From Piedraia hortae CBS 480.64 (Eukaryota), in NCBI GenBank assembly GCA_010093745.1, contig MU005977.1, positions 242,863-262,862 on the forward strand: a stretch of 20,000 bases of DNA, given 5' to 3'. The notes under the pieces were generated by a model, which was given only the letters and a program-made list of their open reading frames with translations, had not been told where the DNA came from and searched no databases. Each line of letters starts with the position of its first letter. The stretch's first letter is position 1. Positions 8,821-16,405 of the stretch are shown here, one piece after another. A program made the translations under genes and the position numbers.

Positions 8821-9756
8821 TTGTTTCTTTGTTACATTTCAAATTGCAGTAAAATAAGCACGCCGGGAACAGATAAGGCAAAAGAGGAGCTCATGCAACC
8901 ATAAATTAGAAAGGTATTGGCTTTATTTCTAGCAATATAGTCCCTTGCTGCGTTTTTGTTTAAAGGTTTGCCGAGCCTGGGATTTGGCTGTAGGGATAGA
9001 ATCACTGTCCCAATTTCTTTCGCCCAAGTATGCTAATTTGATGCCGAGCCGCTACATCAATCCCACACTTGAGCATTCCAAAACTTTTACACCAAAGTTG
9101 TTAAACCGCACAGAGAGTTTAACGGCTAAAAACGATATAGTTCAACCCTCCCTCGACATCCACAATTTCAATGCAAACGAAGTACTTTCGGGCAAAGTGC
9201 TAAAATATATCCCCTGATTGTGGTCCCCTTCCTTTCAAAACGAACGTATACAGTATGTACGCACCGGTTTTTCCACTGTTCAAAAATAAACTAGTCGTCA
9301 AGGATAAGTATGGGTTAATCGCATGTGCATGAACGGTTTGTATGTCTAGGCATCCGCAGCGAGTCGGTAGGAACGTTTACACCCGGGTAGGATTATAACC
9401 ATGACGCAATTTTGGAGTGAGTTGGATACAAAGGCGAGGCCTTCCAGGAGGTATACTATGAGGTGATTCGTGATGGTTTTCCATGTTATTATCAGTCGGT
9501 GAGCGATGTTGGAGAAGTGAATGGATGTTTATTAGAATAGTTTGGGCAACGTGTACCTACCCATTGCCTCTCCCGCCAACCCGCTGAAAACGAACTCTAC
9601 GAGGAAAAGTAGCGCAAAAACAAGCGACCGCCATTGAACACCGTATCATGATACATTACTCGAAAGAGCGCAGCAGCACCTTGACGACGAAACAAATTCT
9701 TTGCCACCGGCGAAAGAAACAAAAAGAAGGGAAAAAAGGGCAAGGAGAGAATGCTC

Positions 9757-12700
9757 TCACCGACCAAAGTCGTAATAAATGCAATGGCCGGTGAGAAAGT
9801 TGAAGAGGCAACCTTCCCTTTCGCCACCGGCATTGGCCCACTTGGCGCGCCAGGCAAGGAGCAGATCTTGAATCTGTTGCAGGTACTGCCTCTCGTTGGG
9901 CGGCACGGACTGTGCAACTTTGCGCCAGCTTTCCGGCTCGCTGAGTCTGGTTTCGCGAATAGCATCCAACACCTCATCACGCGTCTCTACCGCCAGGATG
10001 GGTACGCCTTTCCACGCTTCTAAAACCTTTTCCCACCGTTTCTGCGCTTCGGCCACGATATTGTACTTGTTGACCTTTTTACTGCGGTGTTGCGACATTA
10101 AAACCTGCACGTTGGTTTTCCGGTCCGTATCAGCATTTCCGGGGCGATGCGGAGGTGCGCTTTGACGTCCCTTACTGCTATTAAGGTCGCGAGTTTCCTG
10201 CAAAATGTGGTTTGTGAGCATTGCGACAGGAACATCCTGTTCTTCCGCCCCGGTCATGAGATTTGTTAGTCGGACAGTCTGGGATGATGCATGGCGCACA
10301 ATCACCAGGAAGTTATGGCCGTCATCATGGCGCTTGCCTGTCCCCAACTGGGCCCGGATTTCATGGGCCCACAGAGAGATGATAATCTTGATCGCAACAG
10401 CTTGCGTGTCTTCGCCTCCACTAGTCTCCACTAACACGTAGGGCCGAACTGGTTGATCTTCGATCATTTTCTTGTCTTTAGTGCTCTTCCCCTTGACCAT
10501 GCGAGCTACGACGTTATCGAGGCCAATGGCAACACCAACCGCTCCCTTGCAGTCACTTTGAGAATTCCCAACACGGTGTGCTTTGACCAAGCTATCGTAG
10601 CGTCCACCCGCGGCAATAACCACCCGAGTTGAGTTTCGCTCCATGATGCTCTGGACAAGCATACCTCCGTCGTAGAATTTAGCGTTGACACTGGCCAATG
10701 GCATGAAGTAAACCATCTGGCGTAATTCCATATGGCCGACAAGCGACAAGATGTCTTCCAACGCACGCACACCCCGCTCAAACTTCTCCTTTAGCTGCGG
10801 ATTGACCCCTCTGAGCAATTCTCGCGCATGGTCGAAGCCTTTTGCAGGAGCGTCATGGAAATCGAACATGCCGAGATCGTCTAGAGTGGTATCTGGCAAG
10901 CCAGACTTTCGTAGCTCAACCCGCAACTTCGCCCATGTATATTGCAAAAAACCGAGCCGACTAAGAATCTCCTTGACTGTGAATTGCTTTGCGGCAGGCA
11001 CCCGGCAGAACTCTAGGATTGCATCCAAAATAAGAGTATGGTTGATATGCAGATACATGCTGCTCGAAGCCGTGGGGCCGGGGATAGCGTCCACCACTTC
11101 GTCCATGACTTTTAACAGCTCAGCGTCGTCAATCGCTGGCTGGTCGTCGTCACTGCAGAGATAGATATCGAAATCCACCTCCTCGTGAGTGGTAGGTGGA
11201 CCGCCATTATGGGCATCACGGAATGCCGTGCCGAATACAAACGCTCTCTTGACGGGGGGCGTATTCCGAGCGGCTTGTCTAGCAGATGGAAGGATCAGGT
11301 CGTATGGCAGCTGCAGGAGATTTCCAGAATTGTCTAGCAGCTGGAAGACTCTTTTGTCCGTGTTGTAGTCTGATCGAGGGAACACACTTTCTCTGCGCAT
11401 CTCCTCTGCGCCGTGCCGCCGAAAGATTTGTTCAAGCATCTGAAGAGCGGTTGATCGCAGCTGCAGACGCTCCAAACTTTCTGGGGAAACGCTAACCTTT
11501 GAATCCCATGCAAGTTCTTTGACACGACGGCTTGGGAGTGAGGGGTCTTGGGTAAACAGGCCAGTCATCATCTTCCGATGGTAAGGAGATTGCGGGTCCG
11601 AGATAGTGCTCAAAACTTGCCGAACTGCTTCGTCTTCAAGTTCGACGGGCATCATGTCACTTTGCAAAAGCTCGGTACTGCTTGGTCTGTCAGTGGGATT
11701 GTGAGCAATGAGGCGAGCGATTAATCGCCCTTGTGCAGCCTTGTCGCCGCCTGGACGATAAGATTCAGGTAGCACAAAGTTATTGTTACGAAGTTTCTGC
11801 AGCGCCATTACGCGCTCCATGTAAGTTTCGAAGCGTTCGCACATTTCAAAGAACATAATTCCTAAGGAATCTTAAGAACAGTTAGCTTTCCCTTCCACAA
11901 ATGTTCCTAAATTGGTGAAAGGTTCAAACTAGACATACACCTGCATCATATTATTAAGAGTCCAGGGTTGTTCAAATTGTCAGGATGACTTACATATCGA
12001 CTTTATCCGTGCAGGCAGTGCTGGAGCCTAAACAAAGCTCAGGCGCGGTATAAAGGGGTGTTCCAACACCTCCTGACCTTTTATAACTACCACTTGCATA
12101 GCTTCCAGATGCTACACGATTTGCCGGGTAAACCTGCGCAGTGGTAGCTAGACCGAAGTCGCCAATTTTGGGGTTGCCAGCGTGGTCGATAAACACATTG
12201 TCTGGCTTCAGATCTCGATGAATGATTTGGTGGCTGTGGATGTGATCCAAGCCTTTGGTGATAAGACGCATGTACTGCCAAGACTCGTTCACGGACATAC
12301 CGTTCTTGATCAGTTTACGTAGAGTCAGTCCCCCGCAGAATTCCATTACAATGTAAAGAATTGATTTCAGTCTCGGAGATTGGACGGGCCTGTCATTAGC
12401 GTTGAGAGCGTTATCCGTGGAAGTGGTCACATCATTGCTGGCAGTTCTATCGCCTTCGTCTCCGCTGTCAGCGTTACTCGCTCCTTCATCGTCATATCCA
12501 AACTCAATTTGTCCTAAGCTTTCAGAGCTCACGAAATCGAGACCACCCCGGCTTACGTGGTCATGGCTGGGATACGAACTTGATGCGGAGCTGAAACTCC
12601 TGGTGGCTTCTGGGGTAGGAGACGTAGTTGACGAGGTCCCACTTGATTCATCATCTGCTGCCGCTTCGGTCGAGTCATCCTCTACCCAAGTCGAATAATA

Positions 12701-14434
12701 TCGAACCACGTTCAGGTGGTTAGGCCGCATCAGCAACCTCGCCTCCGACAAAACCTGGCCTGAGAGCTGAGATGCATGTTTGATCTTTTTGACGGCATAT
12801 GTTCCACCATCAAGCCTGTGCCGAGCTTTCACCACTTGACCAAAGCCACCTTCGCCAAGAAGGCCAAGTTCAGTGAAGTCTGTGGCATAGCGAGACTGGG
12901 CAGAGCTGGCTCTTCGAGCCCCGAATGATGCCAACTGGCTCGTCACTATTGCATCGGTACGAAGAAATTCGACAGGGAGCAACTCAAAGGCCGACGGGCG
13001 TTTCTTGCTGTCGATGGTGAATATTTTGCGAGCAAAATCGTCGAAAGCACTGGAAACTCGTAGACGGCTAAGCAGATCGTAAGGCCCCTGGTGTTCATCC
13101 AACACTTGCAAGCCCAACAGCATTTGGACGGCCACAACACCAAGATTCCAGATATCAGCTTTGATGCGTTGTTGAGGGCTAGTGGCCTCCGCTTCGGGCG
13201 CTTGCCACTTTGAAGGTACAGGAATATTGCTGCTGTCCAGAAGCCACTGACCCATTCGACCAAGCTTTGGGGACACTGCAGAACTATGGGAAAGATAGAT
13301 TGAAGAGGCACTGAGCAGGCCATGTGGAAGTCCATTGCGATGCAAAAATTCCAAGGCCTCAAGCAGCTCGATAATAAATTGCCGGGCTTTGTCCACGTGA
13401 AAACTAGCAAGCTGAAGCATGGAATGAAGCGTCCCACAGTTTGCAAATTGGCTGCAGAGTATGATGCAGGAAAGTTCAGCATCCAATTTATTCACACGAT
13501 AAGCATGCAAAGCCAAGACATTGGGATGCCGGATCTTACTTACGGCCTCCAGAGCCGTCTCGATGGCCATGATATCACTGCGTGCCTTGTTCACAGTCAC
13601 CTTTCGGATAGCCACGAGCGGCCTATTCGTTGACTTTTCAGCTCGCACTTGGCCAAGAAAGAGCTCTTCATTGGGCTTTTTATCAAGAGTGCTCAAGAGA
13701 ACGACCGTATCGAATTTCACACATTCGTTGTCGATCTGAACATAAGCATCCTGGTCGAACGAGATGTGAGGACGTGAATGCGGATGTTGAGGCTTTCCAG
13801 TGGTGGAATATCGCCGAGTCATGGTTTTATCTCTGCGATTGAGCTCAGCATCAGCCTTCTGACGAAGGCTTTCTTCTTCTCTTTCACTGGCCTCACGCTG
13901 ACGCTTGGCTTCCGCCTCTTCGAGCTTTTTGGCTTCAGCAATCGCAGTCTCTTCCGCACTTGCGCGCTCTTCTAGCAAGCTGGGAAGAGTTCCTTGTTGC
14001 CGCGCAGCAACCGCGTCTTCCAGCGCATCTTGAATGTCGGAGCCAATGGAGTGTATGACAACTTCGCCCTGCATCTGTTTGATCCGATTTTGAATAATGG
14101 AGTTGATGCGCGACTGAGTACGCTCGTGGAAGTATTGCAACCCATCCACAGTTATCAGAGGAGCTGATCTGGGATACGTGGCCGTAAAAGTCACCGAAAG
14201 TATCACAAAGCTCTCATAGTCAGAAAGCGGCCGTAGGGTAAGTTTGAAGCGGCGTTCGGTCGTCTTATTCCAAGCAGCCTTTGCCTCCAGTTCCTCAAAA
14301 TCTTCCATGTAAATTGCCTTGAGTGCATTGATCTCATCGATCTGGGCTTCAGCATAGTCGATTGGGGGAGATGAAACTCGCCCAGTTGGTTTCGAAACAC
14401 TCTGCCGCTTATTCGACTGCAATTTGGGAGCCAT
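9757..14434 (-). CDS. GCN2: eIF2-alpha kinase GCN2 (CPC-3/CpcC), about 1518 aa; exons 14434-11994, 11940-11939, 11870-9757
   Basis: Full domain order: RWD (AQIDEINALKAIYMEDF, YPRSAP), coiled coil, pseudokinase, eIF2a-type kinase (SRYATDFTELGLLGEGGFG, YAVKKI, acidic insert, LYIVMEFC, IIHRDLKPDN, KIGDFGLA, DMYSLG), HisRS-like domain (LQLPYDL, EVDFDI, AAGGRYD) and C-terminal domain. Spliced length 4557 nt is divisible by 3. Confidence 0.97.
11871..11938 (-). other. GCN2 intron 2 (68 nt)
   Basis: GTATGT donor at 11938, GCTAAC branch point at 11886-11881, AAG acceptor ending at 11871. Confidence 0.85.
11939..11940 (-). other. GCN2 2-nt micro-exon (GT)
   Basis: Context TGCAG|GT|GTATGT. Inclusion gives GAT AT+GT+AT TCC TTA GGA = D-M-Y-S-L-G, the conserved kinase subdomain IX motif. 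Confidence 0.85.
11941..11993 (-). other. GCN2 intron 1 (53 nt)
   Basis: GTAAGT donor at 11993, CTTAAT branch-like motif, GCAG acceptor ending at 11941. Confidence 0.85.
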
Positions 14435-14904
14435 GGTGATCGGGAAGGCCGTGGGCGAAGGCGGTAGAACAACAGTGAAGACGTATGTGCAGTTACACCC
14501 CTACTTTGAGGAAAGGTTGTATGCAAGTGCGGATTCACAAATCCTTATGTATACAGTAGTCAATGAGACTGTTAATATGTTGAGTGTAACGAAGTTCGAT
14601 AGAGACTGCATTGGCCCATGGGGCACCTGTGTCACCTCCCAGATAGCGAGTGTACAACGGTCACAGGAGCAAACTATCTGTAGAAAATTATGTTTCGAAA
14701 GACGTATGATATACTGAACTGACAAAAGATCACGTCATTGAGATTGAGTCTCGTCAAATGACAAGGCTCTTGGTTGCCTGAGGCAATAAGATAAGGTGCG
14801 GGCCGTGCCGTGCCGTGCCGCACTGTTGCCGCCGCGGCGCGGGGAGTTGTGCCGCTAACGTAAACACGAGGCGCGACAACCCGCTACATTGCAACCCCGA
14901 CACT
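14435..14904. promoter_or_regulatory. Shared divergent promoter region GCN2 / Cut12-like gene, with forkhead-type site
   Basis: 470 bp between the two start codons. GTAAACA at 14860-14866, CGCG elements, and a short (GCCGT)n repeat near 14802-14820. Confidence 0.45.
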
Positions 14905-16405
14905 ATGCTGAACTGGCTGTCTGGAGGCAAGGCGTCCGAGATGTTGCAAGGTAGGAGCGTCCTCTGCCTAACTGATGCCGCTAACGCCGCAAGATCCGGA
15001 TAGCGCGTGTCTCGACGCACCTGAAACACCAGCGCCCGTGTTTGCGGTTCGCGCGTTCAAGCATGCAATCTTTGGCACGCCTCAGACTAGTCCTGCTCGG
15101 TCGCGACGCCATACGGGCATCGAAGAAGCCACGCGCCACCAGAACTCCCGGCCGAAGCTGCACGCCCTTCAGTCCAAGGGTCTGGGGGATGTGCCAGTCC
15201 TGGGAGGACCCAACGAAGTGTTTGAGCCAATGAACTCGCCTACCAAAGGCATACTTCTGACGCCTGGGGCCGCCACATCGAAGCGCAAGACGGTCACGTT
15301 TGGAGAACACGTGCTCGGGCCTGACGAGCAGCGTGCAAAGAACGGCGGCCCAGATGGACCTCCGGGACGCTTCCCCAGCCCCTGGAAATCCGACAACGAT
15401 GAAGAAAAGTCCCGAGGCCGTAATAAGCTTACCGAAGCGTTTGAGCAGGTGAGAGAGGAGTCAGCCAAGCGCAAGAAAGCAGACAGACGTAGCCGCCACG
15501 AGGAACCAGAACGTCGGGAACCCAGGACAGAAGAGGGAAGATACTGGAAGACTCAGTACGATGTGTACCGGGAAAACTCGCAAAAAGACGTGAAAAAGTT
15601 AATTGCCAAACAGAAAATGGCAAAGCGGTATGCCAAGGACAAAGACGAGGAGGCCAACGAACTGGCTGAGCAGTTGCGGGAGGAAAAGAAGGAAGTCGAA
15701 AGACTGGAAAAGAAGATGTCGGATCTGGAGGCTCTTGTCGAGGATATGCGGGAGCATCTGCGGCGGTTGGAGGAGCGAAGGGAGGTGCAGCCAGAAGTGG
15801 GCAGTCCGGGAGGCCAACAGTATGCAAGACGCAGCGCTCGTCAGGCTCCAGAAGTGCAAGCTCAGGCCACTTCCCGACGACGTGCTCCACGGACCGTTGC
15901 CGAGCCAGTCCCAATTCCTCCTCCCCACGACTTCAGGCATAGCCCCAGGTGGAGGCCCGAACCGGACATGCCTCCAACACCTCCGACGCACGAAGAAAAA
16001 TTCCTCACACAGAGCATTCCCTCGGAGACCTTGCCTGCGTCTCACGAGAGTGACAAAAATGAACAATCTCCAGTCTTTCCCACTCAATCAACGCCACCAG
16101 AGCTTGCTCGCCCGCCTCGAAAACCCGTTCCATCGCGGAACAGTCGAACAGTGACCAGCGGGACAGATCTGACTCCCCTTTCTGCACTTGCCTCGACACT
16201 TCAGAGCAACCGCCGTGATTCGGTACAGCTTCAGAACGAGGAAAAGAAAAGAAGTGAAGTAGCACCGTTGAAGCCTTCTGCGGCGTGGAACGCTATCAAC
16301 GCCCCGCCCGCTGCTTTAATCGGTCGCGATGGCAAGGAACTCTCCTCCGATCGTCTGGAATCAGCTCGTGCACGACTCGCCGCCAGAGGGCGGGTAATAT
16401 CATAA
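14905..16405 (+). CDS. Spindle pole body-associated Cut12-domain coiled-coil protein, about 485 aa; exons 14905-14950, 14994-16405
   Basis: PETPAPVFAVRAFKHAIFGTP, SPTKGILLTPG, KRKTVTFG, PGRFPSPW and GRYWKTQY motifs typical of fungal Cut12-domain proteins, followed by a coiled coil. The likely N-terminus MLNWLSGG is recovered through intron 14951-14993 (GTAGGA...GCTAAC...AAG, 43 nt, frame-preserving). Confidence 0.85.

Follow-up and report, generated by a model that had tools for sequence, protein, structure and literature searches.

The GCN2 gene and its intervening sequence

The window analysed here is the whole stretch of 20,000 nt from contig MU005977.1 of the hair fungus Piedraia hortae CBS 480.64, on whose minus strand two long open frames lie in the region considered: an upstream frame (11990-14500) with RWD and protein kinase domains and a downstream frame (9757-11871) with HisRS-like and anticodon-binding-like domains according to Pfam. 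Both are parts of a single coding region of three exons that extends from ATG to stop over 9757-14434 (minus strand), and the product matches PF05773 (RWD), PF00069 (Pkinase), PF13393 (tRNA-synt_His) and PF12745 (HGTP_anticodon2). Since all domains that define GCN2 (eIF2-alpha kinase 4) are recognised in the product and its closest database relatives carry the names GCN2 or eIF2-alpha kinase, the gene is assigned to GCN2 by sequence comparison. The top database match is P0001 (Serine/threonine-protein kinase of Piedraia hortae CBS 480.64, 1518 aa, 100% identical): exon 1, the dinucleotide GT and exon 3, translated from the window, equal P0001 over all 1518 residues, and P0001 reads TDKVDMYSLGIMFFEM at the motif that spans the exon junctions. 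A preceding sequence-only reading of this DNA had taken that motif for kinase subdomain IX of GCN2, an assignment supported by the Pfam domains and by an alignment of 34 GCN2 proteins in which Asp-813 and Gly-818 are invariant and Met-814, Tyr-815, Ser-816 and Leu-817 are each at least 90% conserved. The same reading had expected gene predictors to split or mis-model the gene; this was not borne out, as the deposited protein is identical to the three-exon translation. The public P. hortae protein is correct at the junction, as judged from the protein sequence.

The coding part of exon 1 (11994-14434, minus strand) ends two bases into the codon of Met-814 (minus-strand reading: ACG GAT AAA GTC GAT AT) and is followed by the GTAAGT donor of intron 1 (11941-11993; 53 nt, phase 2, GTAAGT..GCAG). 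Next comes an exon of two bases, GT (11939-11940), which supplies the third base of Met-814 (ATG) and the first base of Tyr-815 (TAT). Intron 2 (11871-11938; 68 nt, phase 1, GTATGT..GCTAAC..TTAAG) reads GCTAAC TGTTCTTAAG towards its acceptor; exon 3 (coding part and stop, 9757-11870) then starts with AT TCC TTA GGA ATT ATG TTC TTT GAA ATG and codes for Y-S-L-G-I-M-F-F-E-M, followed by the HisRS-like and C-terminal domains. The lengths of 53 and 68 nt denote entire introns and not the bases between the quoted motifs. These twin introns are the only introns of P. hortae GCN2, as revealed by comparison of the transcript-like contig described below with the window.

Each of the flanking introns is predicted to possess its own donor, branch site and acceptor, the branch site of intron 1 being a weak match only. 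The fungal branch-site consensus is CTRAY. In intron 2, GCTAAC (11886-11881) represents a perfect branch site whose putative branch A lies 11 nt from the 3' end (AAG acceptor). For intron 1, the candidates judged by eye against CTRAY are CTGAC (11983-11979; 39 nt from the 3' end) and TTAAT (11957-11953; 13 nt from the 3' end), both weak, and there is no strong candidate at the usual distance; the stretch from CTGAC to the terminal CAG is free of AG. When the 123-nt interval was shuffled 200000 times with its composition preserved, YAG|GT|GTRNGT with each half at least 40 nt long appeared internally in only 31 cases, and this arrangement of signals is accordingly not a chance feature. The RNA fold of the 143-nt interval was no better than that of shuffled sequences (z -0.47), and an Rfam scan of 9400-14800 gave nothing above threshold, with one sub-threshold chance match.

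The neighbouring gene on the plus strand, whose long frame (14972-16405) contains a Cut12 (spindle pole body) domain, possesses a 43-nt intron (14951-14993; GTAGGA..GCTAAC..CAAG) that is absent from a contig of depth 398 in the transcript-like run X2 (see below). The five bases GCAAG are present at both borders of this intron, and the cut reported by the aligner was therefore placed 5 nt leftward. As the neighbour intron also uses GCTAAC and an AAG acceptor, the signals of intron 2 are normal for this genome. A further observation concerns 50 nt of the HisRS-like region (11091-11140), which also match a second contig in each of the two sequencing runs that hold the locus (1567 nt in X1 and 1866 nt in X2) with 4 differences, the flanks then being unlike the window; this is probably a conserved piece common to another gene.

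Transcript evidence and the number of introns

A search of public sequencing runs returned two holders of the locus: X1, which is DNA-like and contained all sampled words, and X2, in which the fraction of words present was 0.93 and whose label is 'RNA? (a guess: may be DNA)'; no listed run is recorded as RNA. X1 is perhaps the source of the window's own assembly and so perhaps not independent of it. The contigs of both runs were compared with window positions 9000-15200; they are assembled contigs and show the main product only. The X1 contig is colinear with the window over this range, with 0 other letters, 0 gaps and a word depth of 13.8.

In X2, a transcript-like contig of 5019 nt (record 5; word depth 113.9) covers 9565-14704 of the minus strand as two aligned segments (9565-11869 and 11991-14704), both free of gaps and of other letters. 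Its sole joint is a skip of 121 nt (11869 to 11991, with 1 ambiguous base), which equals the sum of the two intron lengths (53 + 68), and both introns are absent from the contig. The joined sequence is GATATGTATTCC, on the gene strand GTC GAT ATG TAT TCC, which is read as D-M-Y-S. The mRNA junction predicted from the genomic letters was found exactly in this contig. The full-length transcript on whose existence the sequence-only reading had made its proposal depend is probably represented by this transcript-like contig, which spans the whole gene. X2 behaves like RNA: the 43-nt GT..AG intron of the neighbour gene is also skipped, the contigs end near the gene borders, and depth between neighbouring genes varies from 2.4 to 398 in X2 while it is flat at 13.8 in X1. 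In the leader of the GCN2 transcript contig (14435-14704, minus strand; 270 nt), short frames of 15 and 36 codons start at two upstream ATGs, located at -185 (about 14619) and -177 (about 14611).

The possible introns were enumerated in two ways. First, all GT-AG, GC-AG and AT-AC pairs in 11780-12100 that join both frames were listed: 177 were frame-compatible and 36 of these stop-free. None of the 36 used the GTAAGT donor at 11993, in agreement with the earlier claim that no single GT-AG intron from this donor to either terminal acceptor (11871 or 11862) restores the frame, and none kept D-M-Y-S-L-G, all of them losing conserved kinase residues; the nearest pairs had poor donors (GTTTAG, GCACGG) and deleted at least 6 residues including the Asp. 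Second, a search in 11830-12030 covered every way to reach the observed mRNA by one or two GT-AG removals, with a minimum intron length of 30 nt. Two pathways were found, namely the removal of introns 1 and 2 in either order, with 0 one-step routes and 0 nested (stwintron-like) routes in this GT-AG enumeration. A single canonical intron does not explain all bases of the mature mRNA, and inclusion of GT restores both the frame and the conserved motif. The X2 junction and the enumeration agree with the proposal that a GT exon between two canonical introns is needed to read DMYSLGIMFFEM. Because no other GT-AG route gives the observed mRNA, we regard it as highly probable that the interval consists of two separate canonical U2-type introns (53 and 68 nt) around a constitutive two-base exon.

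The mRNA sequence alone fits a single non-canonical intron of 121 nt equally well (AAGTCA..CTTAAG, with ends AA..AG, or, shifted by one base, AGTCAT..TTAAGA, with ends AG..GA). This intron would be removed in one step, the GT of the mRNA being then the GT at 11993-11992, and the aligner indeed reports one skip, bounded by TC..CT in plus-strand and by AG..GA in gene-strand orientation. However, neither placement has GT-AG, GC-AG or AT-AC ends, a complete second set of consensus signals of the rarity given above would lie inside the interval, and 53 and 68 nt are nearer than 121 nt to the 43 nt of the neighbour's intron. In addition, this fungal group is not known to possess a minor spliceosome, which counts against a single non-canonical intron. 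The one-step explanation is in consequence considered very unlikely.

Still less probable is a collapse of GTGT at the end of exon 1 in the assembly, in which case GATATGT would be followed in the real gene by a single canonical GT-AG intron of 123 nt. Miscalls can occur in short dinucleotide repeats, and X1, the sole DNA run found, is perhaps the window's source; yet the separate X1 assembly of Logan is the same over 9000-15200, with the identity and depth noted above, and the internal CAG|GT|GTATGT and GCTAAC would remain an unexplained coincidence. That X2 is DNA, as the guessed run type would permit, and its contig an intron-less allele or retrocopy of GCN2, is hardly credible in view of the missing 43-nt intron of the neighbour, of contigs that stop near the gene ends (9565 and 14704) and of a depth that is ~100-fold variable across neighbouring genes as against the flat 13.8 of the DNA run, and even as DNA X2 would show GATATGTATTCC as the functional reading.

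Splicing pathway and origin of the twin introns

Short fungal introns are recognised across the intron, as is established and as PMC6616335 also states. Each of the twin introns in P. hortae GCN2 is complete and would thus be recognised separately by intron definition. As only 2 bases separate the intron 1 acceptor from the intron 2 donor and a spliceosome would not hold both simultaneously, the two introns are expected to be removed consecutively, either order giving an identical mRNA. If intron 1 were removed first, the junction would read AT-GTGTATGT, and the strong donor GTATGT would have to be chosen over the overlapping, weaker GTGTAT, whose use would drop both bases. Removal of both introns would result in GAT ATG TAT TCC and restore the invariant Asp together with the DMYSLG motif of kinase subdomain IX. 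The computed translations of the other possible products all terminate early: with GT skipped, the frame reads VDIFLRNYVL and stops at residue 822, 9 codons later; with intron 1 retained, the stop is at residue 815, and with intron 2 retained at residue 825. Given the early stop caused by GT skipping, the kinase can be made from no other mRNA than that with three exons, which alone encodes kinase subdomains IX-XI together with the HisRS-like half.

The intron positions of relatives were read from database proteins that, to judge by the shapes of the fragments, resemble plain ORF calls on contigs. Among 108 proteins, 14 N-terminal fragments end in K-V/I-D followed by V-S, V-R, V-C or V-G and a short random tail; these dipeptides correspond to the reading of a GT[AG]NGT donor directly after the Asp codon and hence to a phase-0 intron at this point. 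Correspondingly, 41 C-terminal fragments start exactly at M-Y/F-S-L-G. The nearest named proteins of the fragments belong to Verruconis (65-81% identity), Aspergillus (74%), Penicillium (87%) and Colletotrichum (65-72%), and further to Geoglossum, Botrytis, Glarea, Sarea, Xylona and Haloplaca, several classes being represented. Based on these fragment ends, a phase-0 intron between Asp and Met would be old and widespread in Pezizomycotina (new here). Relative to this position, those of P. hortae are located further downstream, intron 1 by 2 nt (phase 2) and intron 2 by 4 nt (phase 1).

Nine closer relatives are uninterrupted at the motif (P0017, P0121, P0122, P0123, P0127, P0242, P0243, P0244 and P0245; contigs of 11.9-92.6 kb), with nearest named proteins from Dothistroma, Cladosporium, Meristemomyces, Peltaster, Elasticomyces, Hortaea, Vermiconidia and Cryomyces. 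The twin structure is common to no sampled relative, the closeness of the sampled proteins to P. hortae being 56% at most. A regular expression gave a count of 239 'uninterrupted' proteins, which was discarded since the pseudokinase domain fits the expression as well. Of 80 loci kept in a metagenome scan, L001 (40% identity) is the sole real GCN2; it has no intron at the motif and three breaks before residue 674, and the other 79 match the kinase-domain part of the query only and were read as other kinases.

Some relatives seem to have breaks at other points, among them two that are Vermiconidia-like. In the first, P0241 ends about five codons before the Asp and P0131, whose longest contig is of equal length, starts at MYSLG; in the second, P0124 starts at MFYEM, as a plain ORF call on the window would, its putative break lying between the two Met codons. 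In P0242, P0244 and P0245, break points are located 108-130 residues after DMYSLG. As far as can be read from such fragments, discordant intron positions may be concentrated in a hot spot at DMYSLG.

Among 101 Dothideomycetes, P. hortae ranks lowest in both genome size (16.95 Mb) and gene number (7572), according to PMC7082219; the absence of other introns in its GCN2 gene fits general intron loss in a very small genome. The location of two introns 2 nt apart, beside an old intron site and in an otherwise intron-free gene, suggests that both share one history and were not gained independently. However, loss within the order and subsequent regain are favoured by the closer relatives that are uninterrupted. 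It is possible, with the balance somewhat against it, that the twin introns represent a frozen intermediate of intron sliding that was remodelled from the old phase-0 intron between Asp and Met in the Piedraia lineage. If this tentative proposal were true, genomic loss of one of the two introns would produce a lone intron displaced by 2 or 4 nt, and the route via micro-exons or stwintrons that has been proposed for 1-nt shifts would extend to larger ones.

Introner-like elements of Dothideomycetes occur in many near-identical intron copies per genome. No second copy of either P. hortae intron was found in the 20-kb window (matches of 13 nt or less only). A signature of duplication was likewise not found between introns 1 and 2 or between the introns and 150 nt of either flanking exon: the observed alignment scores were reached by 178-1726 of 2000 shuffles. 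An origin of the twin introns by duplication was rejected, given local alignments that score no better than shuffles.

The two-base exon in comparison with known systems

Tiny exons are known to mislead gene predictors and read aligners; the present locus is an example of the latter, since the aligner itself reported one non-canonical skip of 121 nt. The GCN2 structure is of a rare but already known kind, one-base exons having been published for Arabidopsis and Fusarium, and to the very few listed exons shorter than 3 nt it adds a constitutive two-base exon that has transcript support and lies in an essential, conserved motif of a fungal kinase. Exons of this size contain no splicing signals of their own and therefore test the packing limit for two spliceosomal reactions. 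As the intron pair lies 2 and 4 nt from an old and widely used intron position, it is also a natural case for studying the movement of intron positions, provided that close relatives are sequenced and their genomes accessible. No report of a two-base exon in a fungus was found in the literature searched; earlier computational work on exons of 2-5 bp in Arabidopsis, Drosophila and human is cited in PMC12940212.

The combination of complex intervening sequences and small shifts of intron position is known from Pezizomycotina, where stwintrons and a one-nucleotide intron shift have been described (Fekete et al. 2017, PMC5587772; Kavalecz et al. 2019, PMC6616335). As in stwintrons, the intervening sequence of GCN2 is complex and two consecutive U2 splicing reactions would be needed; as in the intron-shift cases, it is located a few bases from the intron position of other species, a situation proposed in these sources to yield shifts. 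In a stwintron, as described there, the internal intron interrupts a splice signal of the external intron, which exists only after the first excision. In contrast, both P. hortae introns are complete and independent, and the two bases between them remain in the mRNA. A stwintron reading of the GCN2 pair was rejected, as the two-step GT-AG routes use separate, non-overlapping introns and none spans the first junction.

In recursive splicing, the exons are of zero length and the recursive sites keep no bases. Abutting introns that are removed in this way are named as a class in PMC6616335. The GCN2 pair resembles them in that a 3' and a 5' splice site almost touch and in that removal would proceed stepwise, but two bases are kept, and use of the GTGTAT donor regenerated at the junction would cause a frameshift. 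A recursive splice site with a zero-length exon was consequently rejected, the skip being 121 and not 123 nt.

The single-nucleotide exon of Arabidopsis APC11 (Guo and Liu 2015, PMC4674806) is comparable with the GCN2 exon in being constitutive, too small for exonic splicing signals and needed for the reading frame. It differs in belonging to a plant, in consisting of one base and in having been tested by reporter constructs, whereas the GCN2 exon is known from sequence data.

A close counterpart is the one-nucleotide exon in the CYP621A P450 genes of Fusarium (Nelson and Syed 2026, PMC12940212), which that paper calls the first such exon in a fungal gene. Both cases concern filamentous ascomycetes, a tiny exon inside a conserved protein motif that is enclosed by the AG and GT of two short introns, and a combined intervening stretch of about twice the usual intron length; the route of discovery is likewise comparable, the Fusarium exon having been found via out-of-phase exon boundaries and confirmed by public RNA reads. 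The differences lie in the size of the exon (one base, the G in AGGGT, in Fusarium; two bases, the GT in CAG-GT-GTATGT, in P. hortae), in the gene (a P450 of unknown role versus the housekeeping stress kinase GCN2) and in the distribution, the CYP621A exon being conserved in 20 Fusarium orthologues and the P. hortae structure occurring in no sampled relative. By analogy, the P. hortae exon would work like that of Fusarium: two ordinary short introns are packed against a tiny exon in a conserved motif.
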